DNA of 64,000 nt from Candidatus Omnitrophota bacterium (GCA_003140935.1 PLLJ01000042.1:10144-74143), one strand, 5' to 3'. Shown: positions 18,660-53,221, counted from the stretch's first letter. Numbers and translations: made by a program. Notes: a model not told the origin generated them from the letters alone.

Positions 18660-18670
18660 GGAGATTTTCT

Positions 18671-27365: not shown

Positions 27366-27373
27366 GTTTTTGG

Positions 27374-27454: not shown

Positions 27455-27475
27455 GATTTTAGTTTGATTTTTGAT

Positions 27476-35998: not shown

Positions 35999-38900
35999 AT
36001 GAGTCCTCGTCGCACCCAAAAGAGAATCAAGCGCGCCCGACAGATGCCCAGCCATTCCGGAGCAGCCTCCCTTCAAGCCTCGAAAAAGGTCCCTCAAAAA
36101 TTTCAATGGCGAACCCTCCGTCAGCAACGAACAAAGGGCATCCCTCTGGAAAGCGGGCTGGGCTGGAGAACTATTTTTGAGAATTCCCATGATGGTATTT
36201 TAATCGCGGATCTAGCCCGAAAAAAATTCTTGGATTGCAACAAAAAGATCACAAAGATGTTGAAATACTCCAAAGCGGAGATCCTCTCTTTATCCGTCAA
36301 AGACCTTCATCCGGCGAAGGGATTGAAACGTGCTCTGAAGGGGTTCCATCACTTGGCGAAGGGGCTGGCGTCGGTCGTGGTTGATATCCCGATGAAACGC
36401 AAGGACGGGAGTTCCTTTTACGCGGACATCAGCTGCGCGCGCGTGGAATTTTCCGGCCGTAAATATTTAGTCGGCTTTTTCCGCGATGTCAGCGAACGCA
36501 AAGGATCCGAAGAAGCGCTGATGGAAAGCGAGGAAATGTTCAGGACGTTCACGGAGCGGTCGCCTAACATGATCTTCATCAATCAGGGCGGAAAGGTCGT
36601 TTATGCGAATCCCAAGTGCGAAGAGATCATGGGATATAAACGCGAAGAATTCTATTCGCCGCGGTTCAGTTTTTTGACCCTTATGCACCCGGACGACGTT
36701 CCCGCGGTCCGGCGCAGTTTTTTCACGCACCAGAAAGGCAAAGAAGTCCCTCCCTACGAATACAAAATGCTCACCAAGGGCGGGAAACTGATCCGGGGTA
36801 TTTTGACGTCCAAACTTATCCACTATCGCGGTGCTCCGGCCATTTTGGGGATCATCACGGATATTTCCGATCGCAAAAAGGCGGAGGATGCGCTGCGCGA
36901 AAGTGAAAATCGTTTCCGGAAAATCATCGAACATTCGCCGATCGCGATGGCCATTGTCAGTACGGAGGGCGTGATCGAGTATATTAATCAGAAGGCCATC
37001 AAGGTTTTTGGCTACTTGCCTAAAGAGATCCCGACCATGGAAAGGTGGTGGGTTCAGGCTTATCCGGACAGAGATTACCGTAAGGAAGTTATTGCCGATT
37101 GGATGGGGCGCGTTCAACGGGGCATCGCGTCAGGCGGCGAAATCAAAGGTTCTGAATATCGGGTGACCTGCAAGGATCGCACTGTGAAGACGATGTTCAT
37201 CTCAGGGGCCTATATCGCCGGAAAGATATTCGTTTTGTTCGACGACATCACCGAGCGCTGGGAGGCAGCGGAGGCGCTGCGCGAAAGCGAGAAAAAATAC
37301 AAGCACCTGATCGAAACGACGGGGACGGGCTACGTGGCCCTCGATGAGTGGAGCCGGGTGACCGATGCCAACCCGGAATACGTACGGATGACCGGTCGTA
37401 AAAAGTTGAGCGAGATCTTGGGTCACAAGGTGCAGGAATGGACCGCTCCGTACGATCGCGAACGGAACAAACTTGAAGTGAAAAAATGTTTCAAGCGGGG
37501 TTTCGTGCGCAACCTTGAGGTCGACTACCAAACACCCGCCGGCCAGATTATCCCCATTGAGATCAACGCCACCGTGATCCGTGACGCCGGTCCTGTCCGG
37601 ATCGTGACGATATGCCGCGACATCACCAAGCGCAAGCGGGCGGAAACATCCTTGGCTCAACGTGAAGCCCATATTTCTGGCATCATCGAGAATCAGCCCG
37701 GGATGGTGTGGCTGAAGGATACGCATAGCCGGTTTCTTGTCGTCAATCAGAAATTTTCCGATGTCGCCGGAGGTAAAAACCCCACAAAAATGATCGGAAA
37801 AACGGATTTCGATTTTTGGCCGAAAGACCTTGCCCGAAGGTATCGGGCGGATGATAAAAGGGCCATGAGGACCGGAAAGTCACTCGTGGTGGAGGAACCT
37901 ATTTTAGACAGGGGCGTCCGGAAATGGCATGAGACTTTCAAGACACCGGTCGTGAATGAAAAGGGGCGTATCATCGGAACGACCGGTTATGCCCGGGACA
38001 TCACAGAGCGTAAGAGGACAGAAGCGGTGCTCAAGGAGAGCGAAGAAAAATTCCGCGCCATGTTCGAAACTTCTCCGAGCGGCATGGCTCTGTGCGAAAT
38101 GGATGGGACGCTAGTCCAGGTGAACCAGGCCTATCTGGACATCATCGGGTATACCCGTAAAGAAGCGTTAAAGCTGACTTACTGGGATCTGACGCCGAAG
38201 GAATATGCCGCGGGGGAAGCCCAACAGCTTCGTTCCATGGGAAAAACCGGGCGGTACGGTCCCTACGAGAAGGAATACATCCGTAAAACGGGGGAGCGGG
38301 TCCCGGTTTTGCTCAATGGAGCGGTCGTGACAGGGGTCGATGGCAAGAAACGTATCTGGTCGGTCGTTTTTGATATCACCGAACGCAAACGGGCGGAAGA
38401 AGCACTGAAACAATCTCTTTCTCTCCAAAACGCCACTTTGGAATCGACCGCGGACGGGATCCTTGTCGTGGATCGGGAGGGTAAGGTCGCGGATTTCAAC
38501 GAAAGATTCAAATACTTGTGGCGCATTCCCAAAAAGGTTCTTGCAACGCGTGATGACAAGAAACTGTTGCAGCTGGTTTTAAAACAATTGAAGACCTCCC
38601 CTCGTTTTCTTGCCCGCGTTCAGTGGTACTATGCCCATCCGCGGAAAAGTGGTTTTGATGTCCTGGAATTCAAGGACGGGAGGGTTTTTGAACGGGAAAC
38701 GCATCCGCAATGGGTGGAGAATAAACCCGTGGGGCGCGTGTGGAGCTTTCGCGATGTGACCGAGCGTAAGAAATCAGAAGAACTGCTCCGGAATACCGCC
38801 AAGGAGTGGCGTACCACGTTCAATGCGGTCGGCGATGCCGTGTGGCTCCTCAGTCTGGATGGGCGGATCCTTCAAACCAACAAAGCGGCTTCCAAAATGT

Positions 38901-40984
38901 TGGGAAAAAATACTGCTAGGATCCTCGGGCAATATTGCTGCGAAGTCATGCATAGTTCTAAAACGCCTCCTCCCGGATGTCCCCTGCGGCGTTTGCGGAA
39001 AAGCCTTCATCGCGAATCCTGGGAGACGTCGTTCTTGAACCGTTGGTTCCGGATCACGGTGGATCCCGTCTTGAACGAGCGGGGCGCCTTGATCGGGATT
39101 GTTCATATTGTCAGCGATATCACGGACCGTAAACGGGCGGACGAGGCGGTGATGAAGATCACCCGGTTCAACGAATCGATCATTAGCAGTTTGCCCGGCA
39201 TTTTTTATATTTTTAACAATCAAGGAAAATTTTTACGGGTCAATGAAAGGTTTTTGGAAGTCACGAAATACTCCCTGAAGCAGGTGTATAAAATGCATCC
39301 GTTTGATTTTTTCACCCAAAACGAAAAGGCGAAGGTCAAAGATACGATCGAGAAGGTCTTTGAAAAAGGCGAATCCTTTATCGAGGCCGATCTTTTGGGC
39401 AAAGATGGAAAAAAGACGCCTTTTTATTTCACGGGAGTCCGGGTTGTGATAGACGGGATTCCTCTCTTGGTGGGAGTGGGGATCGACGTTACCGAACGAA
39501 GAAGAGCGAAAGAAGCCGTCGTGGCCAGCGAACGCCGTCTTGCCCATTTGATGGCCGATCTTCCGGGCATGGTCTACCGGTGCAGGAACGAGCGGGATTG
39601 GCCCATATTTTTCGTCAGCGAAGGCTGTTTGCCGCTGACGGGGCACAGAAAAAAGGATTTTGAGTCCCACCGGGTCTTCTATAACGATCTCATCCACCGC
39701 GATGACCAGGAGCGTGTCTGGAACGCCGTGCAGGAAGCCCTAGCAGTAAAAAAATATTTCGAATTAACTTACCGGATCTGGACAAAAAAACACGAGGAAA
39801 AATGGGTTTGGGAACGCGGCCACGGTGTTTGGAACGATTCCGGTGAATTTATGTATCTTGACGGGTTCATCACCGACATCACCGCTCGCAAGCGAGCTGA
39901 GGACTTTCTCAGGGAACACCGGCATCAGTTACTCCAGGTCATTGATACGGTGCCGCATATGATATTCGCCGAGGATGGAAAAGGCCGGTTCTTGCTCGTG
40001 AATCGCGCGGTGGCCCAAGCGTACGGAAAGGAACCCAGAGACCTCATCGGGGTTCTGAGGCAGGACATGCATAAAGTTCGCGAAGAGGCCGAACATTTTT
40101 CGGCAAACGACAAGGAGGTTCTGGAGAGCGGTAAATCCAAGATCATTCCGGGGGAGATTTTCACGGACGTTCATGGGCGGAAGCATGTTCTCCAGACGAT
40201 CAAGATCCCGTTTAGGTTGGTGGGGGCAAAAGAGGATTGTATTTTGGGGGTGTCGGTGGACGTGACGGAGCAAAAAAAAGTCGAAGATTTCCGCAATGAG
40301 ATCATAAGGACCGTTTCCCATGAGCTCCGCACGCCGCTTTCGATCCAAAAAGAGGGTATCAGTCTACTTATGGATGAGATGGTAGGACCCATAAGTGTCG
40401 GACAAAAGGAGATCCTCGAAGCGGTCATGCGGAGCATCGATCGTTTGGCCCGCATGATCTCGAATCTTCTGGATGTTTCGAGTATCGAAACCCGAAAGAT
40501 CAAGTTCTTCCAAAAGATGACGAATTTGGAAGATCTTATAAAGGATGTGTTGCTCGAGTTTAAAAAGCGGGCATTCGAGAAGCATATCGATCTTAGCATG
40601 AAACCGTTGGGGAGCCCGGTCCGGGTTCTTATCGATCCGGACAAAATCACACAGGTTCTGAGCAATCTGGTGGATAATGCTATCAAGTTCACCCCGGAGG
40701 GAGGGACCGTGAAGATCTCTCTCGCTGTGCTAGAGAATGAATTGGAGTGCGAGGTCCGGGATAGCGGGATCGGGATCACTCCTGAGAATCTCGGCAAGGC
40801 GTTTGAAAAATTCCAACAATTTTCGCGGACGGACGGGCCGGGAGAAAAAGGGTTCGGGCTTGGGCTTTCGATCGCGAAGGGGATCATCGAATTGCATGGA
40901 GGCCGGATCTGGATAAAAAGCGAATTCGGCAAAGGGACGTGTGTGATGTTCTCATTACCGCTTTACCAAGGAAGACAGGGCTAA
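35999..40984 (+). CDS. Cytoplasmic multi-PAS sensor histidine kinase (about 10-11 tandem PAS/PAC domains, HisKA, HATPase_c), 1661 aa
   Basis: Repeated PAS cores followed by PAC boxes (ITERK / ITDRK / VTERK recur about 10 times). H-box VSHELRTPLS; N-box LVDNAIKFT; G-boxes DSGIGIT and GFGLGLSIAKG. No TM helices. Confidence 0.85.
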   Translation: MSPRRTQKRIKRARQMPSHSGAASLQASKKVPQKFQWRTLRQQRTKGIPLESGLGWRTIFENSHDGILIADLARKKFLDCNKKITKMLKYSKAEILSLSVKDLHPAKGLKRALKGFHHLAKGLASVVVDIPMKRKDGSSFYADISCARVEFSGRKYLVGFFRDVSERKGSEEALMESEEMFRTFTERSPNMIFINQGGKVVYANPKCEEIMGYKREEFYSPRFSFLTLMHPDDVPAVRRSFFTHQKGKEVPPYEYKMLTKGGKLIRGILTSKLIHYRGAPAILGIITDISDRKKAEDALRESENRFRKIIEHSPIAMAIVSTEGVIEYINQKAIKVFGYLPKEIPTMERWWVQAYPDRDYRKEVIADWMGRVQRGIASGGEIKGSEYRVTCKDRTVKTMFISGAYIAGKIFVLFDDITERWEAAEALRESEKKYKHLIETTGTGYVALDEWSRVTDANPEYVRMTGRKKLSEILGHKVQEWTAPYDRERNKLEVKKCFKRGFVRNLEVDYQTPAGQIIPIEINATVIRDAGPVRIVTICRDITKRKRAETSLAQREAHISGIIENQPGMVWLKDTHSRFLVVNQKFSDVAGGKNPTKMIGKTDFDFWPKDLARRYRADDKRAMRTGKSLVVEEPILDRGVRKWHETFKTPVVNEKGRIIGTTGYARDITERKRTEAVLKESEEKFRAMFETSPSGMALCEMDGTLVQVNQAYLDIIGYTRKEALKLTYWDLTPKEYAAGEAQQLRSMGKTGRYGPYEKEYIRKTGERVPVLLNGAVVTGVDGKKRIWSVVFDITERKRAEEALKQSLSLQNATLESTADGILVVDREGKVADFNERFKYLWRIPKKVLATRDDKKLLQLVLKQLKTSPRFLARVQWYYAHPRKSGFDVLEFKDGRVFERETHPQWVENKPVGRVWSFRDVTERKKSEELLRNTAKEWRTTFNAVGDAVWLLSLDGRILQTNKAASKMLGKNTARILGQYCCEVMHSSKTPPPGCPLRRLRKSLHRESWETSFLNRWFRITVDPVLNERGALIGIVHIVSDITDRKRADEAVMKITRFNESIISSLPGIFYIFNNQGKFLRVNERFLEVTKYSLKQVYKMHPFDFFTQNEKAKVKDTIEKVFEKGESFIEADLLGKDGKKTPFYFTGVRVVIDGIPLLVGVGIDVTERRRAKEAVVASERRLAHLMADLPGMVYRCRNERDWPIFFVSEGCLPLTGHRKKDFESHRVFYNDLIHRDDQERVWNAVQEALAVKKYFELTYRIWTKKHEEKWVWERGHGVWNDSGEFMYLDGFITDITARKRAEDFLREHRHQLLQVIDTVPHMIFAEDGKGRFLLVNRAVAQAYGKEPRDLIGVLRQDMHKVREEAEHFSANDKEVLESGKSKIIPGEIFTDVHGRKHVLQTIKIPFRLVGAKEDCILGVSVDVTEQKKVEDFRNEIIRTVSHELRTPLSIQKEGISLLMDEMVGPISVGQKEILEAVMRSIDRLARMISNLLDVSSIETRKIKFFQKMTNLEDLIKDVLLEFKKRAFEKHIDLSMKPLGSPVRVLIDPDKITQVLSNLVDNAIKFTPEGGTVKISLAVLENELECEVRDSGIGITPENLGKAFEKFQQFSRTDGPGEKGFGLGLSIAKGIIELHGGRIWIKSEFGKGTCVMFSLPLYQGRQG

Positions 40985-40988
40985 GGCC

Positions 40989-41366
40989 ATGCCTGAGGAA
41001 AAAAGAAAGATCCTTTTTGTCGATGATGAACCGGACCAGATCCTGATGATCTCCCTCAGGCTGCAGAAAAGCGGTTATGCGGTCGTCTCCGCCGCGGATG
41101 GAGAAGAGGGTTTGAAGAAAGCCTTTGAAGAAAAGCCCGCTCTTATTCTGTTGGACATGCTCATGCCAGGCATAGACGGTTTTGAGGTTTGTCGCCGGCT
41201 TCGTAAAAATCCCGTCACAAAAAACATTCCGGTCATCGCCACCACGGCGGCGGGCGTCGACGACATCGAATTCCAGTGCCGTGCGGCCGGGGCCGACGAT
41301 TGCATCCGGAAACCCTACGATTCCGCAGACCTTCTCACGAAAATCCGCCAACTGCTTAAGGCATGA
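40989..41366 (+). CDS. Single-domain response regulator (receiver only)
   Basis: ILFVDDEPD ... LILLDMLMPGIDG ... VIATTA ... K. Starts 5 nt after the kinase stop. Confidence 0.85.
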   Translation: MPEEKRKILFVDDEPDQILMISLRLQKSGYAVVSAADGEEGLKKAFEEKPALILLDMLMPGIDGFEVCRRLRKNPVTKNIPVIATTAAGVDDIEFQCRAAGADDCIRKPYDSADLLTKIRQLLKA

Positions 41367-41403
41367 CCCCACAAATCATGATCAAAGGGAAAGGCATCCT
41401 TCT

Positions 41404-42120
41404 GTGAGATCGTTGAACAGCAAACAGATCATTGATGCCTTGACTAAGATCAGCGATGCGGTCATTTCGGACCTGTATTTGGAAGAGATCCTTAAATTGA
41501 TCGTGACGGTGACCGCAGAGGTCATGCATTCCAAGATATGTTCCCTCATGCTCCTGGAAAAGTCCACCAATGAGCTAGTCGTCAAAGCGACCCAATCCGT
41601 CAGTGAGTTCTATAACAAAAAACCCAACGCAAAGCTCGGGGAAGGCATCGCCGGAAGGGCGGCCCAGCTTGGAGAACCGATCACCGTTCTTGATGTGCGG
41701 AAGGACAAACGCTATCTCAATCAAGCGATCGCCAAAAAAGAGAACCTTTGTTCTCTCTTAAGCATGCCGCTTATTTACAAGGGAAATGTCATCGGAGTGC
41801 TGAACTGTTATACGGCCAAGCCGCGTCCCTTTAGCCCAAACGAGATACGCGTCATCAAATCGATCGCGAACCAGGCCGCGATCGTCATTGAGAACTTCCG
41901 GTTGGTCGTAGAATCGCAAGTGATCCAGGAAGAACTGGAATCAAGGAAGGCGATTGAGCGCGCCAAAGGCATTTTGATGAAAAGGGAGAACTTAAGCGAA
42001 CAGGGGGCTTATAAGCTCATCCGTAAGTACAGCATGGATAAACGGAAGAGCATGAGGGAGGTCTCGGAGGCCATCCTTTTAAGCGCGGAGATGCAGAGAT
42101 TTTCATCCGGCAAAGAATGA
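41404..42120 (+). CDS. GAF-ANTAR protein (RNA-binding antiterminator with a GAF sensor domain); probable GTG start
   Basis: The GAF region (IVTVTAEVMHSKICSLMLLEK...NCYTAKPRPFSPNEIRVIKSIANQAAIVIEN) is followed by an ANTAR signature (ESRKAIERAKGILMKRENLSEQGAYKLIRKYSMDKRKSMREVSEAIL). The track ORF starts further upstream, inside the receiver gene in a different frame; GTG at 41404 follows a GGGAAAGG RBS. Confidence 0.75.
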   Translation: MRSLNSKQIIDALTKISDAVISDLYLEEILKLIVTVTAEVMHSKICSLMLLEKSTNELVVKATQSVSEFYNKKPNAKLGEGIAGRAAQLGEPITVLDVRKDKRYLNQAIAKKENLCSLLSMPLIYKGNVIGVLNCYTAKPRPFSPNEIRVIKSIANQAAIVIENFRLVVESQVIQEELESRKAIERAKGILMKRENLSEQGAYKLIRKYSMDKRKSMREVSEAILLSAEMQRFSSGKE

Positions 42121-42377: not shown

Positions 42378-43742
42378 ATGGCAAAAACAGGGGAAAGTTC
42401 AGCGGAAAAAGAGATCAACGCGTTCATGAAAAAAGTGAGTGCCAGAAATCCCGGTGAAAAGGAATTTCTTCAAGCGGTCCGGGAAGTGGTGGATTCCGTA
42501 ACGCCTTTTATCGAAAAACACCCCAGGTATAGAAATGCGAAGATCCTGGAAAGAATGGTCGAGCCGGAGCGTGTGATCATGTTCCGGGTTCCCTGGCTTG
42601 ATGACAAGGGAGAGATCCAGATCAATCGTGGTTTCCGTATTCAGATGAACAGCGCGATCGGTCCCTACAAGGGCGGTATTCGCCTTCACCCGAGTGTCAA
42701 TCTCGGCATCCTGAAGTTTTTAGCGTTCGAACAAGTGTTCAAGAACAGCCTCACCACGCTGCCCATGGGCGGGGCGAAGGGCGGTTCAGATTTTGATCCC
42801 AAAGGGAAATCCGATAACGAGGTCATGAAGTTCTGTCAGAGTTTCATGCTGGAGCTCTCCCGTCATATCGGACCGGATACGGACGTTCCGGCCGGCGATA
42901 TCGGCGTGGGTGGCCGCGAGATCGGTTTTATGTTCGGCCAGTACAAGAGAATCCGTAATGAATTCACCGGCGTTCTGACCGGAAAGGCCCTGAGTTGGGG
43001 TGGCAGTCTTATCCGTCCCGAGGCCACCGGCTATGGCTGCGTTTATTTCGTCGAAGAAATGATGAAGACGAGAAAAATGTCCCTGGCAGGGAAGACCTGC
43101 GTTGTTTCCGGTTCGGGGAACGTCGCGCAGTATACCGTGGAAAAACTTAATGAGCTTGGCGCCAAAGTCGTCACCTTGTCGGATTCGGACGGTTACATCT
43201 ATGACAAAAAAGGCATTGACGCGAAAAAATTGCAGTTCGTCATGGAGCTCAAAAACGTAAAGCGCGGACGCATCAAGGAGTATGCGGACGAATTCGGCTG
43301 CGAATATGTGGCCGGTCAAAGACCGTGGAAAGTCGAGTGCGATGTGGCTTTTCCGAGCGCCACGCAGAACGAGATCAGCGGGAACGACGCAAAGGCCCTC
43401 GTCAAGAACGGTTGTATCGCGATCGGCGAAGGCGCCAACATGCCGACCACGCCGGAAGGCATCGAAGTATTCCAGAAGGCAAAGATCCTCTATGCCCCCG
43501 GCAAGGCGGCGAATGCCGGCGGGGTAGCGACTTCGGGTCTGGAAATGAGCCAGAACAGCATGAGGCTTCGCTGGTCCCGCAAGGAAGTCGATGAAAAACT
43601 GCACGGGATCATGGTCTCGATCCACGAGAGCTGCGTGAAATACGGCAAGGAAGACGCGAAGTATATCAACTACGTCAACGGCGCCAACATCGCGGGGTTC
43701 GTGAAAGTTGCGGATGCCATGATTGATCAAGGCTTGGTCTAG
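42378..43742 (+). CDS. gdhA: NADP-specific glutamate dehydrogenase
   Basis: The Glu/Leu/Phe/Val dehydrogenase active-site region (LPMGGAKGGSDFDPKGKSDNEV) and a Rossmann GSGNVAQY. RBS GGGGTGA before the ATG at 42378. The track ORF begins earlier, in the leader. Confidence 0.9.
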   Translation: MAKTGESSAEKEINAFMKKVSARNPGEKEFLQAVREVVDSVTPFIEKHPRYRNAKILERMVEPERVIMFRVPWLDDKGEIQINRGFRIQMNSAIGPYKGGIRLHPSVNLGILKFLAFEQVFKNSLTTLPMGGAKGGSDFDPKGKSDNEVMKFCQSFMLELSRHIGPDTDVPAGDIGVGGREIGFMFGQYKRIRNEFTGVLTGKALSWGGSLIRPEATGYGCVYFVEEMMKTRKMSLAGKTCVVSGSGNVAQYTVEKLNELGAKVVTLSDSDGYIYDKKGIDAKKLQFVMELKNVKRGRIKEYADEFGCEYVAGQRPWKVECDVAFPSATQNEISGNDAKALVKNGCIAIGEGANMPTTPEGIEVFQKAKILYAPGKAANAGGVATSGLEMSQNSMRLRWSRKEVDEKLHGIMVSIHESCVKYGKEDAKYINYVNGANIAGFVKVADAMIDQGLV

Positions 43743-43764
43743 GACCGGGACGTAGTTCTAAGGG

Positions 43765-43793
43765 CAGGGCCCCTTTTGGGGCCCTGTTTTTTT
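43765..43793 (+). terminator. Rho-independent terminator after gdhA
   Basis: cagggcccc-tttt-ggggccctg followed by ttttttt. Confidence 0.75.
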
Positions 43794-43796
43794 AGG

Positions 43797-43825
43797 TTGA
43801 CAAATGATACAAGAACGGTATCATT
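43797..43825 (+). promoter_or_regulatory. TTGACA -35 hexamer followed by the perfect inverted repeat AATGATAC-N7-GTATCATT (which contains TATCAT), immediately upstream of the Rrf2 gene; a candidate autoregulatory operator
   Basis: An 8-bp perfect palindrome arm read directly. The -10-like TATCAT sits 6-7 nt from the ATG at 43831, implying a leaderless or very short-leader transcript. Confidence 0.4.
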
Positions 43826-43830
43826 ACGCG

Positions 43831-44292
43831 ATGAAACTTATCACACGCAACACCGATTACGCGATGCGCGCCCTTTGTTATATCGCAGGACAGAGTAAAA
43901 CGTCCGTGTCTGCCGAAGAAATGGTAACGCGACTCAAGATCCCGAGGCCTTTTTTAAGGAAGATCCTCCAGATTTTAAGCGGCGAAGGTTTATTGAAGTC
44001 CACCAAAGGACAGGGAGGCGGGTTCTCTTTAGCTTGTTCCAAGGAGAAAGTTCTTCTGACGGACTTGATACGGATCTTTCAAAATACGATCCAATTGAAC
44101 GAATGTGTTTTCAAGAAAAAAACATGTCCCAACCGGAGCACCTGTATGTTGAAGAAGAAAATCGATTCCATCGAGCGAGACGTATTCAAAAGGCTTCGCG
44201 GGATATCGATCGCCTCTTTGATACATGACGGGAACGGTTCGCGTTCGCATCCGAAGGGAAAATGTCATGGCCATTCTGCAAGCCGCCACTGA
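43831..44292 (+). CDS. Rrf2-family transcriptional regulator (NsrR/IscR-like)
   Basis: An N-terminal winged-helix region (MKLITRNTDYAMRALCYIAGQ...) typical of Rrf2, and Cys residues in the C-terminal half. 154 aa. Confidence 0.75.
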   Translation: MKLITRNTDYAMRALCYIAGQSKTSVSAEEMVTRLKIPRPFLRKILQILSGEGLLKSTKGQGGGFSLACSKEKVLLTDLIRIFQNTIQLNECVFKKKTCPNRSTCMLKKKIDSIERDVFKRLRGISIASLIHDGNGSRSHPKGKCHGHSASRH

Positions 44293-46006
44293 AACGAGGT
44301 TCAAAGGGTTGCCGCTCAGTCCCGGGGTCGCGGTGGCGCGGGTGTGTCTTTTTAATGAAAAGCGCCATACGAGTCTTTCCGTCACGAATGTTACGGACAA
44401 AGAGGTTCGGAGTGAAGGCGAACGTTTCAGAAAAGCCTTGTCTTTCGTCCGGGAAAAGCTGACCCAGCTTATCAGGGAGGTAAAAGAACGCGTCGGGAAG
44501 GCTGAGGCCGAGATCTTTACGGCACAAAAAATGATCCTCGAAGATCCTGCGCTGATCCAAAGGGTGGCCGACCATATCCGCAGCAAGAACTTTAACGCCG
44601 AAAAGGCCGTGATCAGCTCGCTCGACTTTTTTGAGGAACAGCTGGCCGAGAAGGATAATGCTTATGTCCGGGAACGCGCGGCGGACATCAGTGAAGTGAA
44701 ACGCCGGCTGCTCGATGCGCTTGCCAATCTGAATCCTTCATTCCAATGTGAAAGTGATTCTTTCTGTCAAAAGGGGAAGAATCGGATCGTGATCGCCCAG
44801 GAGCTTACTCCGAGCTTGACCATGGAACTCAATACCGATTCTATCCGAGGATTTGTGACCGACCGCGGGGGCGTGGCTTCGCATGCTGCGATCCTGGCAC
44901 GTGCTCTCGGGATTCCGGCCGTAAGCGGTATTCCGGGGATCCACGATATGATCTTCTGCGGGACGGAGGTACTTGTCAACGGGGGTACCGGAGAGGTCGT
45001 GATATGGCCGAATAAAAATACGCTTGCGGAATATCCGGATCTTCAACGGGGGATCGCAGAAGAAATTCCCGTCGTGGAACCCGTCACCGGACTTAAGGTG
45101 TTCGCCAACTTGAGTCTCGCGAAAAAAGTGAAGGAGGCCGTGGATCATAAAGCGGAAGGGATCGGACTTTACCGGACGGAGTTTGAATTTTTTGCGGCAG
45201 GGAAGGTTCTCTGTGAAATGGAACAATACGATCTTTATCGCGAGGTCCTGAAAGCCATGAAAGACAAACCGGTCTATTTCAGAATGCTCGACCTGGGCGG
45301 TGACAAGACCGCGGATTTTTTTAAATTTCCAAAGGAACAAAATCCCGCGCTGGGCCTCCGCGGAAGTCGTCTCCTCTTGGGACATCCCGAACTTTTCAGG
45401 AATCAGGCACGGGCCTTGGCCCGTGCATCCCGGTACGGCCGCGTTCATGTGATGTATCCCATGGTGATCGATATTGAGCAATTCCGGAGACTGAAAAAGG
45501 CCTTCGGGGAAGCGAGCGCGGATATCCCGCAGGGCGAGATCAAGCATGGACTCATGTTTGAAGTCCCGTCGGCATGTCTCGATGCGGAAGAGATCCTGAA
45601 AGAGGCGGATTTTGGCAGTGTTGGCACGAACGATCTGATCCAGTATCTGTTCGCCGTGGATCGTGATAATGAATTCGTCGCATACGACCATCATCCGGAC
45701 CGCAAGATCTTCTGGCACCTTATTCACCATGTCGCGCATGCTGCCAAAAAACACCGCAAGCCGCTTTCGGTCTGCGGAGAATTGGCGGCCAATCCTGTGT
45801 ATGCGAGAAAATTGATCGCAGAGGGGATCCGCGCGGTCAGTGTGGCACCGCGGGCCATTACGGGCTTGAGGATCGCGATCAAGAACAAACCGAAGCTCGC
45901 CAAGAAAAGGGCTTTGAAGCTGTTCAACGGGAAAAAGAAGCGAACCGTGAACGCGGATCCTTCATTGAAAAATAGAAATAAAAAAACAACAAAAAGGAGA
46001 AAATAA
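44267..46006 (+). CDS. ptsI: PEP-utilising Enzyme I homologue (phosphoenolpyruvate-protein phosphotransferase-like) with a Lys-rich C-terminal tail
   Basis: The phospho-His region (GGVASHAAILARALGIPAVSG) and the PEP-binding TIM-barrel motifs GLYRTEFEFF and GTNDLIQY. No HPr or EII genes nearby. The tail is ...KKRALKLFNGKKKRTVNADPSLKNRNKKTTKRRK. Confidence 0.75.
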   Translation: MAILQAATETRFKGLPLSPGVAVARVCLFNEKRHTSLSVTNVTDKEVRSEGERFRKALSFVREKLTQLIREVKERVGKAEAEIFTAQKMILEDPALIQRVADHIRSKNFNAEKAVISSLDFFEEQLAEKDNAYVRERAADISEVKRRLLDALANLNPSFQCESDSFCQKGKNRIVIAQELTPSLTMELNTDSIRGFVTDRGGVASHAAILARALGIPAVSGIPGIHDMIFCGTEVLVNGGTGEVVIWPNKNTLAEYPDLQRGIAEEIPVVEPVTGLKVFANLSLAKKVKEAVDHKAEGIGLYRTEFEFFAAGKVLCEMEQYDLYREVLKAMKDKPVYFRMLDLGGDKTADFFKFPKEQNPALGLRGSRLLLGHPELFRNQARALARASRYGRVHVMYPMVIDIEQFRRLKKAFGEASADIPQGEIKHGLMFEVPSACLDAEEILKEADFGSVGTNDLIQYLFAVDRDNEFVAYDHHPDRKIFWHLIHHVAHAAKKHRKPLSVCGELAANPVYARKLIAEGIRAVSVAPRAITGLRIAIKNKPKLAKKRALKLFNGKKKRTVNADPSLKNRNKKTTKRRK

Positions 46007-46007
46007 A

Positions 46008-47684
46008 ATGGGCATGTTTTGCTATCAGTGCGAACAGACAGCCAAAGGAAAAGGCTGCGATGTGAAGGGTGTATGCGGTAAAACGCCGGAGGTGGCGGCG
46101 CTTCAGGATCTCTTGGTCCATGTGGCAAAAGGGATCGCGATCTATGGGCAAAGGATCCGCGAGATGGGTCTGAAGGATAACGAAGCGGATCTCTTTTTGA
46201 TCGAGGCGCTTTTTACCACGGTCACGAATGTGGATTTTGATCCTGAAAGGATCCAGGAGGCGTTGCTCCGGGGTTTTAAGATTAAAGAGAAGATCAGAAA
46301 TCTTTTCCATAATATCTATAAGAAAAAAAATCGCCGCGATTTTGACGGTGAACTTCCGGCGGCGGCCTACTGGATGCCCGCGGCCAATTTGGCGGGTCTT
46401 GTGGAACAAGGGAGCAAAGTCGGCATTCTCTCCGATAAAACTCTCAATGAGGACATCCGGAGCCTTCGCGAACTTCTGCTCTACGGGCTCAAGGGAATGG
46501 CGGCTTATGCGGATCATGCGCATGTGCTGGGCAGGCAGGATGAGGAGGTGACCGCGTTCTTCTACAAAGGTTTGTGCGCGCTCACGGACCATCGTCTGAC
46601 TGTGAACGATCTTGTGGACCTGAACATGAAGTTCGGGATGGTCAATCTCAAATGCCTGGAACTTTTGGATAAGGCGCACACGGATCATTTTGGGCATCCG
46701 GTGCCGACGCGCGTGTCGCTCGGAGTGAAAAAAGGTCCCGCGATCCTCGTGTCCGGCCATGATCTTCTGGACCTGGAACAACTTCTTCAGCAGACGGAAG
46801 GTCAAGGGATCAATATTTACACGCATGGCGAGATGTTGCCGGCGCACGGGTATCCGGGGCTTAAAAAATACGAGCACCTTGTCGCGAATTACGGCGGCGC
46901 GTGGCAGGATCAAGCCAAGGAATTCGACGTTTTTCCGGGAGCGATCCTGATGACCACCAATTGCATTCAGCAGCCGCGCGAAAGTTACAAGAGCCGGATC
47001 TTCACGACGGGTCTTGTGGCGTGGTCGGGAGTGCAACACATTGGACAGCTCAATGGACGAAAAGATTTTTCCCCCGTCATCGCGAAAGCGATCGAGACCG
47101 GCGGTTTTCTGCAGGATATCCCCGCGAAGAATATCGTGGTGGGGTTTGGCCACAACGCGGTGCTGGGTGTCGCGGACAAGGTCATCGACGCGGTGAAAGC
47201 CGGAAAGATCAAACATTTGTTCCTCGTGGGAGGATGTGATGGCGCGAAGCCCGGAAGGAACTACTACACGGATTTTGCCACGGAGGCGCCTAAGGATACG
47301 GTCATCCTGACACTTGCTTGCGGCAAATACCGGTTCAACAAACTCGAGTTCGGGGATATCGGCGGCATTCCGAGACTTCTCGATATGGGGCAGTGCAATG
47401 ATGCTTACTCCGCGATCCGGGTAGCCGTCGCTCTTGCGAAGGCTCTCGAGTGCGGCGTGAACGATCTGCCGCTTTCGATGATCCTTTCTTGGTACGAACA
47501 AAAGGCGGTCTGTATCCTCTTGACGCTTTTGGCGCTGAGGATCCAGAACATCCGCATTGGCCCCTCACTTCCCGCTTTTGTGAGTCCCAACGTGTTGAAC
47601 GTGCTTGTCTCAAAGTTCAATATCAAGCCCGTGACCACGGCCAAAGAGGACCTTGCTGCGATCCTCGGGACCGTGAAAGTCTGA
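46008..47684 (+). CDS. hcp: Hydroxylamine reductase / hybrid-cluster protein
   Basis: N-terminal Cys cluster MFCYQCEQTAKGKGCDVKGVCGK. 558 aa with conserved hybrid-cluster ligands. The ATG is 1 nt after the Enzyme I stop. Confidence 0.9.
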   Translation: MGMFCYQCEQTAKGKGCDVKGVCGKTPEVAALQDLLVHVAKGIAIYGQRIREMGLKDNEADLFLIEALFTTVTNVDFDPERIQEALLRGFKIKEKIRNLFHNIYKKKNRRDFDGELPAAAYWMPAANLAGLVEQGSKVGILSDKTLNEDIRSLRELLLYGLKGMAAYADHAHVLGRQDEEVTAFFYKGLCALTDHRLTVNDLVDLNMKFGMVNLKCLELLDKAHTDHFGHPVPTRVSLGVKKGPAILVSGHDLLDLEQLLQQTEGQGINIYTHGEMLPAHGYPGLKKYEHLVANYGGAWQDQAKEFDVFPGAILMTTNCIQQPRESYKSRIFTTGLVAWSGVQHIGQLNGRKDFSPVIAKAIETGGFLQDIPAKNIVVGFGHNAVLGVADKVIDAVKAGKIKHLFLVGGCDGAKPGRNYYTDFATEAPKDTVILTLACGKYRFNKLEFGDIGGIPRLLDMGQCNDAYSAIRVAVALAKALECGVNDLPLSMILSWYEQKAVCILLTLLALRIQNIRIGPSLPAFVSPNVLNVLVSKFNIKPVTTAKEDLAAILGTVKV

Positions 47685-47699
47685 TCCCGTTCGGCACCC

Positions 47700-47731
47700 G
47701 ATAGACGGTCTCAGACCCGGGACCGTCTATC
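47700..47731. repeat. Perfect 11-bp inverted repeat GATAGACGGTC-N10-GACCGTCTATC, 16 nt after the hcp stop
   Basis: Read directly. No T-tract follows. Confidence 0.4.
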
Positions 47732-47862
47732 TCAGGGGGCGGTCAAAGCATCTCGGGAATCCGTTTGATATAAGAGGGATTCCATGGTGTAATATGCCAG
47801 TTCGATAAAATCCCCCCGGAGAAATGTCGCGAGAATTTTTCTCTGTCAAATGAAGGGTGAAA

Positions 47863-48660
47863 ATGGAACAACCGAAATACAAATACATTTACGGGCCCGT
47901 TTCTTCCTGGAGGCTGGGTCGTTCTTTGGGGATTGATCCGATCTCCTCATTCCAGAAGACCTGCACATTCGATTGCGTATATTGCCAGTCGGGGAGGACC
48001 GAAGTCTTCTCGGATCGGCGTGAAGTTTATGTTCCGACCGAAGCCTTGATCCATGAATTGAACTCCTTGCCCGAAGTTTCCGTCGACTATGTCACTTTTG
48101 CCGGGCACGGCGAGCCTACGCTCGCGAAAAATCTTGGAGGAATGATCCGCGCGGTTAAAATGATCCGGAAAGAGAAAGTCGCGGTGATCACGAACTCCTC
48201 GCTGATCGACCGCAAGGATGTCGTGGAGGACCTGCTTCTCGCGGATCTCGTGGAAGCAAAACTTGATGCGTCCTCTTCCGAATCCTTCAAAGTGATCAAT
48301 CGGCCCATGCCGGAGATCCTCTGGGAAGATATGGTGGGAGGATTGAAGACTTTCCGGAAGGTTTTTAAAGGATATTTGGCCTTGCAGGTCATGTTTATGG
48401 CGAGTAATAAGGCTTGTGCTGCCGCTATCGCGCAAATTGCGCACCAGATCACTCCCAACGAGGTCGAGATCAATACACCTCTCCGGGCTTGTGCCGTGAA
48501 GCCGTTGTCGATAGAGGAAATAGAGGAAATAACGGCGATCTTTCGCGGGGTTTGCGGTGCTGAGAGTAAGGTGCGAAACGTGTATGAAGTGAAACGTGAA
48601 AAGATACAGCCGTTCTGCCAGCCATCGACGGAACGGCGACGGGGGAAAGAGAATTCGTAA
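47863..48660 (+). CDS. Radical SAM protein of unknown specificity
   Basis: The CTFDCVYCQSG (CxxxCxxC) motif follows the YGPVSSWRLGRSLGIDP N-terminal motif. The ATG at 47863 is preceded by AAGGG; the track start at 47857 is a GTG. Confidence 0.7.
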   Translation: MEQPKYKYIYGPVSSWRLGRSLGIDPISSFQKTCTFDCVYCQSGRTEVFSDRREVYVPTEALIHELNSLPEVSVDYVTFAGHGEPTLAKNLGGMIRAVKMIRKEKVAVITNSSLIDRKDVVEDLLLADLVEAKLDASSSESFKVINRPMPEILWEDMVGGLKTFRKVFKGYLALQVMFMASNKACAAAIAQIAHQITPNEVEINTPLRACAVKPLSIEEIEEITAIFRGVCGAESKVRNVYEVKREKIQPFCQPSTERRRGKENS

Positions 48661-49641: not shown

Positions 49642-51408
49642 ATGAAAAAAGCTGTGAATCCCGGGATTGAAGCGATCCAAAAACACGGAAGCCGGGTGGT
49701 GGGCGAGGGCATGCACATGCTGCCGGCTGCGGGACTGATGGTGGCCGCGGGTGTTTTAGGAGAGGTGGCCGACCGGAAGAAAAAATTTGTGACCGTCATT
49801 AATTCCTACACGACTCATATCCCGGGTCATGTTCATTTGAATGTCCTGGGGGAGAAGCTTGTGACCGCGCTTAAGACCAAAGGCTATAACGTCTGGTACG
49901 CGAATATCGGGGCGGCCATTTGCGACGGCATCGCGATGGGCCATTTCGGGATGAAATACTCGCTCCCTTCCCGCGAGCTGATCACGGACCAGATCGAAAG
50001 CATCGTGGGGGCTCATCCCTGCGACGGTTGGATCGGAATCGGCAATTGCGACAAGATCGTTCCGGGGATGTTGAATGCCATGGTGCGCCTGAATATCCCT
50101 TCGGTCTATGTGAGCGGCGGGCCGATGCTTGCGGGCGCAAAGAATACCGATCTCATTACGATCTTTGAGGGTGTGGGGAGCGAAGCGGCCGGCAAGATGT
50201 CTCCGGGCCACCTTGAAGATCTTGCCAATACCGCGTGCCGCACCTGCGGAAGCTGCGCGGGAATGTTCACGGCCAATTCCATGAATTGTCTGGCCGAGGC
50301 GATCGGATTGGCGCAGCCGGGGAACGGCACGATCCCTGCGGCGGTGTGGACCGATGCGAAAAAAACATCTTGGGCGATCAATCCTGAGCGTATCAGGCTG
50401 GTCGAACAGGCGGCGGACACTTTAGAGAACGCGCTTCTCAACAATATCCGTCCGCTCGATATTGTGACCAAGGCGTCGATCGATAATGCTTTTATTCTCG
50501 ACCTGGCCATGGGCGGTTCGAGTAACACGGTCCTTCACACGCTGGCGCTGGCGTGCGAGGCCGGTATTGCTTATTCCATCAAACGGATCAATCAGCTCGC
50601 TAAACTGACGCCCACGGTCTGTAAAGTGTCGCCGTCGCGTCCTGAAATCCATCTCGAAGATGTTCATCGTAAAGGCGGGATCGCGACGATCTTGAAATCA
50701 GTTTCTCAAGATGGCCGGGCGCCGCTCGATCTTGACCTCAAGACATGCGTAGGAAGTTTGCGGAACATGGTGGAAAAAGCACCGGATCCCGATGGCGATG
50801 TGATCCGTTCCGGAGAGAAAGTTTTTTCGAAAGAAGGCGGACTCGCGGTCCTGTATGGAAATATCGCGCCGGAAGGTGCGGTAGTAAAGACGGCCGGCGT
50901 GGATAAAGACATGATGCAATTCACCGGACGCGCGAAGTGCTACGATTCGCAGGAAAGCGCGCTTGAAGCAATCCTGAAGGGCAAGGTCGTGGACGGTGAT
51001 GTCGTGGTGATCCGCTATGAAGGACCCAAGGGCGGGCCGGGAATGCAGGAAATGCTCTCACCGACCTCGGCCCTGAAAGGCCGGGAGATCAAGGCGGCGC
51101 TGATCACGGACGGACGTTTCTCCGGTGGGACGCGCGGACTTTGTATCGGGCATATTTCGCCGGAAGCCGCCGCGGGAGGACCAATCGCGATCATTAAAAA
51201 TGGTGATACGATCAGAATCGATGCCACAAAAAGGACGATGGATGTCGACCTTCCGGCCCAAGAGATCAAAAAGCGGCTCTCCCAACTCAAACCCTTTACA
51301 CCCAAAGTCACGGGGGGATGGTTGGGCCGGTATGCCCGTCACGTCTTGAGTGCTCATACGGGCGCCGTGATGGATAACGTTGTTTTATTTTTGGGCCGGA
51401 GGAAGTAA
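49642..51408 (+). CDS. ilvD: Dihydroxy-acid dehydratase family enzyme (IlvD/Edd)
   Basis: CDGIAMGHFGMKYSLPSRELITDQIES, the Cys cluster PCDGW...GNCDK, and the C-terminal ITDGRFSGGTRGLCIGHISPEAAAGGPIA. RBS AAGGAA; the ATG is 12 nt after the nadA stop. Confidence 0.8.
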   Translation: MKKAVNPGIEAIQKHGSRVVGEGMHMLPAAGLMVAAGVLGEVADRKKKFVTVINSYTTHIPGHVHLNVLGEKLVTALKTKGYNVWYANIGAAICDGIAMGHFGMKYSLPSRELITDQIESIVGAHPCDGWIGIGNCDKIVPGMLNAMVRLNIPSVYVSGGPMLAGAKNTDLITIFEGVGSEAAGKMSPGHLEDLANTACRTCGSCAGMFTANSMNCLAEAIGLAQPGNGTIPAAVWTDAKKTSWAINPERIRLVEQAADTLENALLNNIRPLDIVTKASIDNAFILDLAMGGSSNTVLHTLALACEAGIAYSIKRINQLAKLTPTVCKVSPSRPEIHLEDVHRKGGIATILKSVSQDGRAPLDLDLKTCVGSLRNMVEKAPDPDGDVIRSGEKVFSKEGGLAVLYGNIAPEGAVVKTAGVDKDMMQFTGRAKCYDSQESALEAILKGKVVDGDVVVIRYEGPKGGPGMQEMLSPTSALKGREIKAALITDGRFSGGTRGLCIGHISPEAAAGGPIAIIKNGDTIRIDATKRTMDVDLPAQEIKKRLSQLKPFTPKVTGGWLGRYARHVLSAHTGAVMDNVVLFLGRRK

Positions 51409-51421
51409 GAAGGATTTTCCG

Positions 51422-52609
51422 ATGAAGGCTATTCCGATAGCGAAAAATATCTGGTGGGTCGGAGCGATCGATTGGAATGCTCATCATTTTCACGGGCAGA
51501 CTTTTACCACGAAGCGCGGCACGACCTATAACGCCTATCTGATCCTCGATGAAAAAGTTACGCTGATCGATACGGTCTACGGCCCCTTCACGGAAGAGAT
51601 GCTCCAGAGGATCCGGACCGTGCTTCCGCCCGAAAAGATCGATACCATCATCGTCAATCACATCGAACCCGATCATTCCGGAGCGTTACCCGCCCTCGTC
51701 AAGCTTTGTCCCAAAGCCAGGATCTACGGGAGCGCGCGTGCAGGGCAGGGGCTTGAGCGTTATTACCAGCAGAAGCTCGATTTTCACTCCGTGAAGACCG
51801 GCGACCGGCTGAGTCTCGGGAAAAGGACGCTTCAATTCATCGAGATTCCGATGATCCATTGGCCGGACAGCATGATGAGCTATATGATCGAAGACCAAAT
51901 CCTTTTCTCCAACGACGCGTTCGGTCAGCACTATGCCACGAGCGAGCGCTTTGATGACGAGGTGCCGCAAGAAACCCTCATGGAAGAGGCCGGAAAATAT
52001 TATGCCGGTATTCTTTGGCCGTTCAGCCAATTGATCACCCAACGGCTCGCGGAGATCGAGAAGATGGCCATTCCCATCAAGATGATCGCCACATCCCACG
52101 GACTCAGTTGGCGGAAAGATCCGGGAAAGATCCTTCAAGCCTATCAACGCTGGGCCTCAAATGAAACAAAACCCAAGATCGTCGTGGTTTATGAAACGAT
52201 GTGGGGTTCCACCGCGAAAATGGCGCAAAAGATCGTGGAGGGCATCCATGACGCGGGGGTGAAATTCGAGCTTTATGATATGGCTCAATCGGACCGCACG
52301 GAGGTGATCCACGACATGCTTGATGCCAAGGCCTTCATCGTGGGTTCTTCGAACCATGACAGCGGGATCCTGCCGAACATGACTTCTTTTATGGAATGCC
52401 TCAAGGGACTGCATCCGAAAAAGCGTATCGGTTGTGCATTTGGTTCCTACGGTTGGTCCGGGATCGCGATCCAATCGCTTCAAAATACACTTGCGGCGGC
52501 AGGGGTTGAGGTCGTCCAGCCTTTGCTTTCGGTGGTTTATGCTCCGGATGAAGGGCAGCTTGCCGCCTGCTATGAACTCGGTAAAAAAATGGCGGCACTT
52601 GTCAAATGA
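51422..52609 (+). CDS. fprA: Flavodiiron protein (FprA / flavorubredoxin-like NO/O2 reductase): metallo-beta-lactamase domain plus flavodoxin domain
   Basis: The di-iron motif in NHIEPDHSG and the N-terminus MKAIPIAKNIWWVGAIDWN. A C-terminal flavodoxin fold (IVVVYETMWGSTAKMA). Confidence 0.85.
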   Translation: MKAIPIAKNIWWVGAIDWNAHHFHGQTFTTKRGTTYNAYLILDEKVTLIDTVYGPFTEEMLQRIRTVLPPEKIDTIIVNHIEPDHSGALPALVKLCPKARIYGSARAGQGLERYYQQKLDFHSVKTGDRLSLGKRTLQFIEIPMIHWPDSMMSYMIEDQILFSNDAFGQHYATSERFDDEVPQETLMEEAGKYYAGILWPFSQLITQRLAEIEKMAIPIKMIATSHGLSWRKDPGKILQAYQRWASNETKPKIVVVYETMWGSTAKMAQKIVEGIHDAGVKFELYDMAQSDRTEVIHDMLDAKAFIVGSSNHDSGILPNMTSFMECLKGLHPKKRIGCAFGSYGWSGIAIQSLQNTLAAAGVEVVQPLLSVVYAPDEGQLAACYELGKKMAALVK

Positions 52610-52726
52610 CCGCATCATCTTGCGGGACGCAAGTTGCTGCGGGGATTTTCCGCCACACTGCCTTGGACGGATCCGTCCTTTGGCGGAGATCCGCCGTTTT
52701 GGACAGATAGAAAGGGGGGGAGGACC

Positions 52727-53221
52727 GTGGAAACCTTGGATGCCCTTGCGAAGCGCGCCAGCGTTCGCGATTATATGAACCAGCCAGTTCCGAAGGACAT
52801 GCTGGAAAAGCTCGTGGATGCGGGACGGCGTGCGCCGAGCGCCCGGGCGGTCGAGCCGTGGGAATTCGTGGTGATCATCGGCCGTGCGATGCTCGATAAG
52901 CTCGCCGGGATCATCAGCACGGGGGTGTTCCTCAAACAAGCGACGGCCTGCATTGTGGTTTTTTGCCAGGATACAAAATATTATCTCGAGGACGGCTCCG
53001 CGGCGACCGAGAACATTCTCCTCGCGGCAACGGACCTGGGGCTCGGCACTTGTTGGGTCGCGGGTGATAAAAAAGAGTATTGTGAAGAAGTCTCGAGGCT
53101 TCTCGGAGCGCCGGAACACTTAAAACTCATCAGTCTGATCTCGGTCGGATGGGCCGTACGTGAACCTAAACAACACAAACGCCGCACCCTCTCTGAAGTT
53201 CTGCACTGGGAAAAGATTTAA
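52727..53221 (+). CDS. Nitroreductase-family flavoprotein; GTG start assumed after GGAGG
   Basis: The LDALAKRASVRDY N-terminal motif, the nitroreductase fold, and C-terminal ...LISVGWAV. The upstream part of the track ORF has no homology signal. Confidence 0.65.
   Translation: METLDALAKRASVRDYMNQPVPKDMLEKLVDAGRRAPSARAVEPWEFVVIIGRAMLDKLAGIISTGVFLKQATACIVVFCQDTKYYLEDGSAATENILLAATDLGLGTCWVAGDKKEYCEEVSRLLGAPEHLKLISLISVGWAVREPKQHKRRTLSEVLHWEKI

Follow-up and report, generated by a model that had tools for sequence, protein, structure and literature searches.

A cysteine-marked Enzyme I homologue in a predicted Rrf2-hcp stress operon of a Candidatus Omnitrophota bacterium

Enzyme I (EI) of the phosphotransferase system (PTS) is among the best-studied bacterial signalling and transport enzymes, and the oxidative-stress operons of anaerobes have been dissected for decades. 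Control of hcp, the gene for the hybrid-cluster protein, by Rrf2-family regulators of the NsrR type is known, as are leaderless regulator genes; the NsrR of E. coli has hcp among its classical targets, and ytfE is an NsrR target too. For Kiritimatiella glycovorans, an anaerobic bacterium of the PVC (Planctomycetes-Verrucomicrobia-Chlamydiae) group, a rudimentary PTS with a regulatory role has been proposed (PMC5148204). Beyond that remark, our search of the literature on the PTS in Omnitrophota returned nothing relevant, and full-text searching returned no report that ties ptsI or Enzyme I to rubrerythrin, flavodiiron protein (FDP), superoxide reductase (SOR) or PerR operons. Here we describe, in silico throughout, a locus in a 64-kb stretch of Candidatus Omnitrophota bacterium DNA (GCA_003140935.1 PLLJ01000042.1:10144-74143; the whole stretch is called the window below). 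In it, the genes for an Rrf2-family regulator, an EI homologue and Hcp form one tightly coupled three-gene unit that is isolated from upstream.

To judge from its sequence, the EI of this unit belongs to a distinct cysteine-marked subfamily that is spread over Omnitrophota, Verrucomicrobiota, Lentisphaerota and related metagenomic lineages. So far as we know and could find, neither this subfamily, nor its separation from ptsH, nor its membership in PerR- or Rrf2-controlled detoxification operons across phyla has been described. On balance, we think it probable that the unit is a three-gene stress operon in which a redox-linked EI is co-induced with detoxification enzymes. That the EI might serve the stress response had been proposed in an earlier note on this DNA, and the idea is strengthened by an association with detoxification genes that holds across the subfamily; the role of the EI itself is one that we infer. 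The EI gene and the features within it are:

44267-46006 (+ strand): PTS Enzyme I homologue, 579 aa, with PEP-utilisers_N, mobile His and PEP-binding C domains (TIGR01417)
44345-44959 (+ strand): EI signature stretch, holding C27, C161, C167, C231 and the phospho-accepting His206, from homologue alignments
45773-45775 (+ strand): catalytic Cys503 of EI in a VCGE motif, the equivalent of E. coli Cys502
45887-46003 (+ strand): C-terminal K/R-rich disordered tail of EI, 39 aa, from composition and an AlphaFold2 (AF2) pLDDT below 50

The protein contains PF05524, PF00391 and PF02896 and scores 419.8 bits against TIGR01417 (PTS_I_fam; cutoff 341.7). It aligns to the S. carnosus EI 2HRO with E = 4e-95, and also to 2WQD and 2HWG. 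Conserved relative to these solved enzymes are GGVASH206AAI (GGRTSHSAI), VC503GE (MCGE), LYRTEF and GTNDLIQY, and both His206 and Cys503 are invariant in 65 EI homologues. By these residues the EI is genuine and catalytically intact, and it is probably active. The HPr-binding alpha subdomain is well conserved, with a mean column identity of 0.64 and the EAIF and DNEY..ERA..D motifs kept. The earlier note had allowed that the gene might be a fragment of a phosphoenolpyruvate (PEP) synthase or pyruvate phosphate dikinase (PPDK); the NCBIfam profiles gave 182 vs 598 for PpsA and 126 vs 843 for PPDK, with only the shared His and PEP domains matching, and point to a true three-domain EI. An assignment to EI-Ntr (PtsP) was likewise rejected, as there is no GAF domain and the match to PRK11061 begins at model position 163 and reaches 293 (cutoff 583).

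The same note had remarked on a Lys-rich tail of 40 aa, and the last 39 aa of the EI indeed hold 18 K/R. Such a tail is unique to the EI among the ~44 open reading frames (ORFs) of the window; none of the other ~43 shares it, and we rejected a general trait of the organism's proteins as its origin. The tail is basic in all Omnitrophota orthologues without being conserved in sequence, and it is missing from homologues at 50-58% identity. It persists where hcp lies up to 970 bp downstream (L004), so that a by-product of the hcp Shine-Dalgarno was rejected as its whole explanation. As a guess, it could be a nucleic-acid or membrane tether.

What sets this EI apart is its cysteines. Besides the catalytic Cys, four others (C27, C161, C167 and C231) do not vary in alignments that take in 35-71 homologues with identities as low as 49%. 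All four are in the alpha/beta (phospho-His) subdomain of the N-terminal half (EIN), and C161 and C167 form a C-x5-C within an insertion that canonical EI lacks. In the window the codons are at 44345-47 (C27), within 44747-44767 (C161 and C167) and at 44957-59 (C231), with that of His206 at 44882-84. A more distant set came from a library of 1.84 billion proteins, of whose 50%-identity representatives the best 150 were taken. Among these 150, C27, C161 and C167 co-occur in ~25 further proteins, in which position 231 is variable; the EIs beyond those ~25, that of E. coli included, have neither the insertion nor any signature Cys. An AF2 model (pLDDT 83) places C27 in the strand 21-29 and C231 directly before the strand 234-238, and shows the tail as disordered.

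A wider genomic association was first hinted at by homologues of 50% identity from Verrucomicrobiota and Lentisphaerota, among whose gene orders are FDP-rubredoxin-EI-NROR-like reductase (L020; retrieved loci are labelled in this way throughout) and FDP-EI-rubrerythrin (L024). Another 80 loci, whose EIs have 31-74% identity, were drawn from metagenomes in a scan. We annotated all flanks by means of a panel of proteins and a hidden Markov model (HMM) for HPr, clustered the EIs at 65% identity, and counted only clusters with at least 1.5 kb of flank. Rubrerythrin (Rbr), FDP, rubredoxin (Rd), SOR, NROR and Hcp were taken as the core detoxification genes, within a radius of 2.5 kb. At least one of them lies within that radius in 18 of the 31 clusters that carry the cysteine signature, compared with 1 of the 21 that do not (Fisher p = 8e-5). 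An adjacent HPr shows the opposite distribution, with 0/31 signature clusters and 9/21 non-signature clusters (Fisher p = 8e-5). Detoxification genes crowd close to signature EIs: there are 0.68 of them per kb in the nearest 0.5 kb and 0.012-0.021 per kb at a distance of 3-7 kb, and of the 28 that lie within 1.5 kb, 27 share the strand of the EI. Downstream of another signature EI there is a peroxiredoxin gene, which the panel did not contain.

Further gene orders include PntAB-Fur-Dfx-Rbr-EI, EI-Rd-ferritin-FDP, EI-Dfx-ferritin, Rbr-[ArsC-like-EI]-DsbH-like ... FDP-Rd and Fur-Rbr-EI-Dfx-Ftn-FDP-Rd. The regulators also differ by lineage, being either Fur proteins with PerR models as best matches or Rrf2. 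Since gene orders and regulators vary this widely, the linkage between EI and detoxification genes has outlived many rearrangements.

Several other arrangements were seen among these loci. An ArsC/LMW-phosphatase-like domain (CVGNSCRS) is fused to the EI N-terminus at L029:2449-4572 (P0098); in L036 a gene for such a protein (6541-6954) is immediately upstream of EI, and homologues occur a few kb off in L024, L040 and L049. A distant signature branch at 40-43% identity (L064, L070, L073 and L074; EI at ~7000-8600 or 2522-4114) consistently has a gene for a DUF2400 protein upstream, and in two loci of this branch a gene for a PAS- or GAF-containing sigma-54 activator comes after EI; the context of this branch is thus conserved too, but of another kind. 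L107 (6279-9032) and L106 come from an unrelated metagenomic lineage, and there an Rrf2 gene precedes a canonical ptsI-ptsH pair without the Cys signature. The L107 Rrf2 is 31% identical to the Rrf2 of the window and has a TDY motif and a Cys-rich C-terminal part; thus Rrf2 control of general PTS genes may recur.

We did not identify HPr, EIIA, EIIB, EIIC or HprK domains in a Pfam sweep of the 64-kb window, nor an HPr active-site motif in its six frames. Near signature EIs, no HPr was found by the HMM, by an active-site regular expression or by tblastn searches in which the HPr proteins of E. coli and B. subtilis were the queries. The HMM, for which five HPr/NPr sequences were used, did detect HPr beside 11 canonical EIs, which served as a positive control. 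Small ORFs next to EI (75 aa in L019; 74-81 aa and Cys-rich in L004 and L009) have no Pfam or NCBIfam match and no HPr motif. The description of this EI as an orphan in the earlier note is therefore borne out across the window, where no partner is encoded.

The remaining features of the operon, together with its borders, are:

43765-43793 (+ strand): intrinsic terminator of gdhA, CAGGGCCCC-TTTT-GGGGCCCTG then T7
43797-43802 (+ strand): -35 hexamer TTGACA, from promoter scoring and the orthologous loci
43803-43825 (+ strand): palindrome of 8-7-8 form, 23 bp, candidate Rrf2 operator, AATGATAC-AAGAACG-GTATCATT, with arms conserved in orthologues
43819-43824 (+ strand): -10 hexamer TATCAT, in the right arm of the palindrome, from promoter scoring
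43831-44292 (+ strand): Rrf2-family regulator, 153 aa (PF02082)
45995-45999 (+ strand): hcp Shine-Dalgarno AGGAG, within the final EI codons, from the sequence
46008-47684 (+ strand): hcp, hybrid-cluster protein / hydroxylamine reductase, 558 aa (NF003658)
47700-47731 (+ strand): hairpin with a 13-bp stem and no T-run, 16 nt past the hcp stop, from fold analysis

The terminator belongs to the upstream gdhA and shields the operon from transcription arriving from upstream. EI starts at ATG 44267, with a GAAGGGA Shine-Dalgarno and a 26-nt overlap with the end of the Rrf2 gene; an alternative ATG at 44225 is passed over by both public gene callers. The hcp ATG at 46008 is 1 nt beyond the EI stop. 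Its Shine-Dalgarno is inside the last EI codons, which suggests that EI and hcp are translationally coupled. Hcp is full length (837 bits against a cutoff of 367 for NF003658, and 751 against 361 for TIGR01703). A gap of 172 nt separates hcp from the next gene; the spacer 47685-47860 folds better than shuffled sequence (z = -4.1) and has no Rfam match. Its fold is dominated by the hairpin, which probably forms the 3' end of the operon transcript or stabilises it. Scans for Rfam families and tRNAs gave no hits within or close to the operon. The operon with overlapping or abutting junctions that the earlier note had described is thus present, with every element within 2 nt of where it had been placed; as a whole the observation in that note was confirmed, and its interpretation is supported in part, with no evidence for the predicted regulon (see below).

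In seven relatives (L004, L006, L009, L010, L011, L013 and L043), a hemerythrin gene and a small Cys-rich ORF lie between EI and hcp (L009:11686-12558). The hemerythrin has 207 aa (PF01814) and a weak match to the C-terminus of YtfE (E 5.6e-4; 19.5 bits, cutoff 254), a likeness to this NsrR target that is only suggestive. The Cys-rich ORF of 74-81 aa (MNWGCPHLEKERCGKLGKACCPAQKGC...) has a basic tail and no family match.

The regulator is a member of the Rrf2 family, with 103.2 bits against PF02082 (cutoff 30) and 95.5 bits against TIGR00738 (cutoff 73.3). Its Cys92, Cys99 and Cys105, together with Asp9, align with the [4Fe-4S] ligands Cys93, Cys99, Cys105 and Asp8 in the structure of S. coelicolor NsrR (ScNsrR), and all four residues are invariant across 15 Rrf2 orthologues. 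The NCBIfam equivalog scores are all under their cutoffs (SufR-like 69.7, RirA 67.3, IscR 56.5 and NsrR 51.8 bits). In IscR the third Cys is followed, at a distance of three residues, by a His ligand; here the residue at that distance from Cys105 is Lys, and with IscR equivalog scores of 56.5 against 207.6 and 28.1 against 275 we rejected this identity. Thus, we anticipate that the protein likely works like NsrR. That it is an NsrR orthologue is unproven: the term NsrR-like, used earlier for this regulator, is upheld by the aligned cysteines and Asp9, and not by the NsrR equivalog score. A second Rrf2 of 154 aa with C-x10-C-x5-C spacing is encoded within 63273-64000, directly before an apparent SufB N-terminus. 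This one is probably the regulator of Fe-S assembly (SUF), and because it is a separate gene that precedes sufB, the Rrf2 of the operon would not have that function.

Upstream of the regulator gene, TTGACA-16 nt-TATCAT matches the promoter consensus at 11 of 12 positions and has the top score in 43500-48100. The predicted promoter is of a strong sigma-70 type and is overlapped by the palindrome. By chance, 0.22 palindrome matches are expected in the window at three or fewer mismatches and 1 is found, which is weak evidence alone. We retrieved 16 orthologous Omnitrophota loci, with EIs at 66-90% identity. The arms of the palindrome are identical in 16/16 of them, with one copy each, and its 7-nt spacer is variable; because the arms are kept while the spacer varies, we take the palindrome as genuine, and this is decisive over the chance count. 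Many orthologues have TGn ahead of TATCAT, which is an extended -10 (TGGTATCAT). The -35 is TTGAC(A/T) in 11 of the 12 loci of leaderless type (described below) and TTGATA in L023. The palindrome fills the interval from the -35 hexamer to the -10 and takes in the latter; it is thus laid out like a repressor operator, and it is likely that it serves the Rrf2 as such. Its length of 23 bp agrees with Rrf2-family sites. The earlier note had placed it between TTGACA and the ATG with TATCAT inside, which is exact, and it appears to behave as a conserved operator over the promoter core.

That note had also predicted a regulon under the same palindrome, with a site before an fprA-like gene. In a search of the window and 317 kb of Omnitrophota loci at three or fewer mismatches and spacers of 6-8 nt, the matches beyond the Rrf2 promoter were a few non-conserved intragenic ones with 3 mismatches. 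There is no copy before the flavodiiron gene located 5.4 kb downstream of EI. Only the Rrf2 promoter is conserved among the searched loci, and we therefore rejected a wider regulon. With no second operator found, the Rrf2 looks local and autoregulatory.

We called a gene leaderless where a -10 is about 6-7 nt upstream of the AUG and there is no Shine-Dalgarno. The Rrf2 ATG at 43831 is 6 nt after TATCAT, without a Shine-Dalgarno. With a transcript start ~7 nt after the -10, the 5' end would be at the A of this ATG. The ATG is 6-9 nt past the -10 in 12 of the 15 loci examined (exactly 6 nt in 9, and 7-9 nt in 3). In these 12, the bases between TATCAT and ATG vary and never hold a Shine-Dalgarno, whereas EI and hcp have GAAGGGA and AGGAG, respectively. 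An in-frame upstream ATG at 43804, chosen by one gene caller, is not conserved and hits a stop in L003, for example; it was rejected as the Rrf2 start, and for this reason we regard ATG 43831 as the real one. Thus, the Rrf2 is most probably translated from a leaderless, autoregulated transcript, a geometry already proposed in the earlier note and one that fits these loci.

Three loci (L008:1140-1252, L012:9463-9567 and L014:113-197) have an insertion of ~90-110 nt immediately past the Rrf2 ATGAA (GTGAA in L014). It is bordered by the inverted repeats CCCCGTTAGATCTC ... GGAGATCTAACGGGG and supplies a new start codon, GTG, along with a Shine-Dalgarno of GGAG. A new start is the expected outcome of interrupting a leaderless gene, and in this way the insertion marks the ancestral ATG as the start. 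Its paired repeats could mask the new Shine-Dalgarno. No further copies were found among the loci examined, and the insert could be what is left of a MITE-like element, or else a structured leader that was acquired.

Elsewhere in the window, a flavodiiron protein is encoded at 51380-53221, 5.4 kb downstream of EI, with the anaerobic NO reductase flavorubredoxin as best NCBIfam model and a nitroreductase gene next to it; this order is kept across Omnitrophota, often with a ferritin gene before that for FDP. Directly upstream of gdhA, 35999-42120 encodes a multi-PAS histidine kinase of 1661 aa, a stand-alone receiver and a GAF-ANTAR protein, which are kept in most relatives. Three histidine kinases with an N-terminal 7TM region (HisKA_7TM), a receiver and a methyltransferase are encoded at 13469-20962. 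The G+C content at 16-20 kb is 0.42 compared with ~0.52, and hence this stretch may have been horizontally acquired. Nearly all genes over 1-64000 are on the + strand and the GC skew is positive throughout. The sole long gene-free gap of the window contains tRNA Thr-TGT and Tyr-GTA (27293-27560).

A mechanism for the operon can be proposed as follows. Holo-Rrf2, an NsrR-like Fe-S protein, would repress its own leaderless operon via the palindrome. NO or an oxidant would damage the cluster and relieve repression, and Rrf2, EI and Hcp could then be produced together. The signature cysteines would make the EI responsive to redox state or to a metal, and the EI could act as a redox-linked, PEP-dependent phosphotransferase or sensor that ties the PEP/pyruvate node to the stress response. 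We prefer this reading of the EI because cysteine-marked EIs avoid ptsH and mostly sit in detoxification operons. As its output, the EI may phosphorylate a carrier of HPr type whose gene lies elsewhere, or may alter the PEP-to-pyruvate flux for reductant supply, and the coupling would probably run through a rudimentary regulatory PTS. In a more specific form, which we hold as a tentative possibility, a metal or disulfide site made of C27, C161 and C167, with or without C231, would gate phosphotransfer by redox state or NO, such that stress is turned into a PTS-type signal or a change in PEP/pyruvate flux.

Several observations weigh against this picture. About 40% of the signature clusters are in unrelated contexts (DUF2400-EI-sigma54 activator, RND efflux, a DHODH-like gene). 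The panel of detoxification genes was drawn from neighbours of the subfamily and the control EIs are probably from other, less anaerobic taxa, both of which inflate the contrast between the two groups. In the AF2 model the C161-C167 loop has low confidence (pLDDT ~60). The palindrome is at no other gene, so that no regulon is defined. The NsrR equivalog NF008240 gives 51.8 bits against a cutoff of 182; this model is proteobacterial, and thus the low score weakens the claim of orthology and not that of NsrR-like working. Finally, HPr may well be encoded elsewhere in the genome, and orphan holds for the 64 kb only.

If HPr is encoded elsewhere, the EI could be an ordinary housekeeping ptsI, the single general EI of a rudimentary PTS of the EI-HPr-EIIA-Ntr type. 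Its place in stress operons would then be a by-product of compact genomes with co-directional genes, or of synteny passed down, and its extra cysteines would be structural, for instance a Zn site, and not involved in sensing. This is the main rival, and we find it doubtful, although much is consistent with it: the protein is a full EI with a conserved HPr-binding alpha subdomain, and a rudimentary regulatory PTS is on record for an anaerobic PVC bacterium (PMC5148204). Co-orientation could also be incidental where nearly all window genes share one strand and the neighbourhood from gdhA to FDP is syntenic within Omnitrophota, and the ~40% of signature clusters without a stress neighbour fit as well. 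However, the linkage to detoxification genes holds through many gene orders, phyla and two types of regulator, down to 42% EI identity. The enrichment right beside EI is ~40-fold and nearly all on the same strand, as expected of selected co-regulation and not of drift, and in the window the EI appears to be translationally coupled on both sides. Very improbable, in our view, is an HPr-independent metabolic role, in which the EI would turn PEP to pyruvate under stress with another phosphate sink, either to feed pyruvate:ferredoxin oxidoreductase (POR), with low-potential electrons for Hcp, FDP, Rbr and SOR, or to let pyruvate scavenge peroxide. The lack of an adjacent ptsH in all 31 signature clusters would suit such a role, as would one EI gene that is convergent with POR subunits, the reductant suppliers PntAB and NROR-like protein in the same operons, and the ArsC/LMW-phosphatase-like domain fused or adjacent to the EI N-terminus in one lineage. 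That fusion, however, is seen in a single cluster and might stem from an error in gene calling, and the HPr-binding subdomain is retained and conserved. We know of no catalytic turnover by an EI without a protein acceptor, which also counts against this role.

The signal sensed by the regulator can be read differently too. It is unlikely, yet deserves consideration, that what the Rrf2 senses is not NO but iron or Fe-S status, like IscR and RirA, or redox state in general, like RsrR; the operon would in that case answer to iron or, more broadly, to cluster damage. SufR-like (69.7) and RirA (67.3) outscore NsrR (51.8 bits), with all three below cutoffs, and the PerR-like Fur over EI relatives points to an oxidative and not a nitrosative signal. 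Set against this are the N-terminal T-D-Y motif, in which Asp9 aligns with the Asp8 ligand of ScNsrR, the lack of an IscR-type His after the third Cys, and the separate Rrf2 that precedes sufB. Moreover, the operon contains hcp, the classical target of E. coli NsrR, and the hemerythrin of relatives is weakly YtfE-like.

If the redox-linked role of the EI is correct, it would tie the PEP/pyruvate node or a PTS phosphorelay directly to the defence of strict anaerobes, the poorly understood Omnitrophota among them, against O2, peroxide and NO, and the cysteine-marked EI would be an unrecognised core component of operons for defence against reactive oxygen and nitrogen species (ROS/RNS) in PVC-group bacteria. 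In addition, the locus supplies a phylogenetically footprinted candidate operator for an Rrf2 protein and a regulator gene that is likely leaderless, from a phylum whose genetics has hardly been studied by experiment.

Among described systems, the operon is comparable to the NsrR regulon of E. coli, Bacillus and Streptomyces in having an Rrf2 whose three C-terminal cysteines and N-terminal Asp match the ScNsrR ligands in position, a 23-bp inverted-repeat candidate operator over the promoter, and hcp as a putative target. Unlike in that regulon, the regulator here heads its own operon, is probably leaderless, and shares the unit with a PTS Enzyme I, and no second operator was found. The EI resembles canonical PtsI (2HRO, 2WQD, 2HWG) in its three domains, phospho-accepting His, catalytic Cys and PEP/Mg motifs. 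It differs in the extra invariant C27, C-x5-C 161/167 and C231, partly within an insertion, in its location in oxidative or nitrosative stress operons without an adjacent ptsH, and in the basic disordered tail found in Omnitrophota. Like EI-Ntr (PtsP) and the rudimentary PTS of Kiritimatiella glycovorans (PMC5148204), it would be an EI used for signalling, without EIIB/C genes nearby and in hosts that probably lack PTS sugar transport. In contrast to EI-Ntr, it has no GAF sensor, the candidate sensory element being the Cys cluster in the His domain, and its genomic link is to ROS/RNS defence and not to rpoN and nitrogen genes. The PerR/Fur operons of rubrerythrin, superoxide reductase, flavodiiron protein and rubredoxin are known from Clostridia and Desulfovibrio, and relatives of the EI sit inside operons of this kind. 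The operon in the window can be seen as the Rrf2/Hcp version of the same PerR/Fur detoxification theme.

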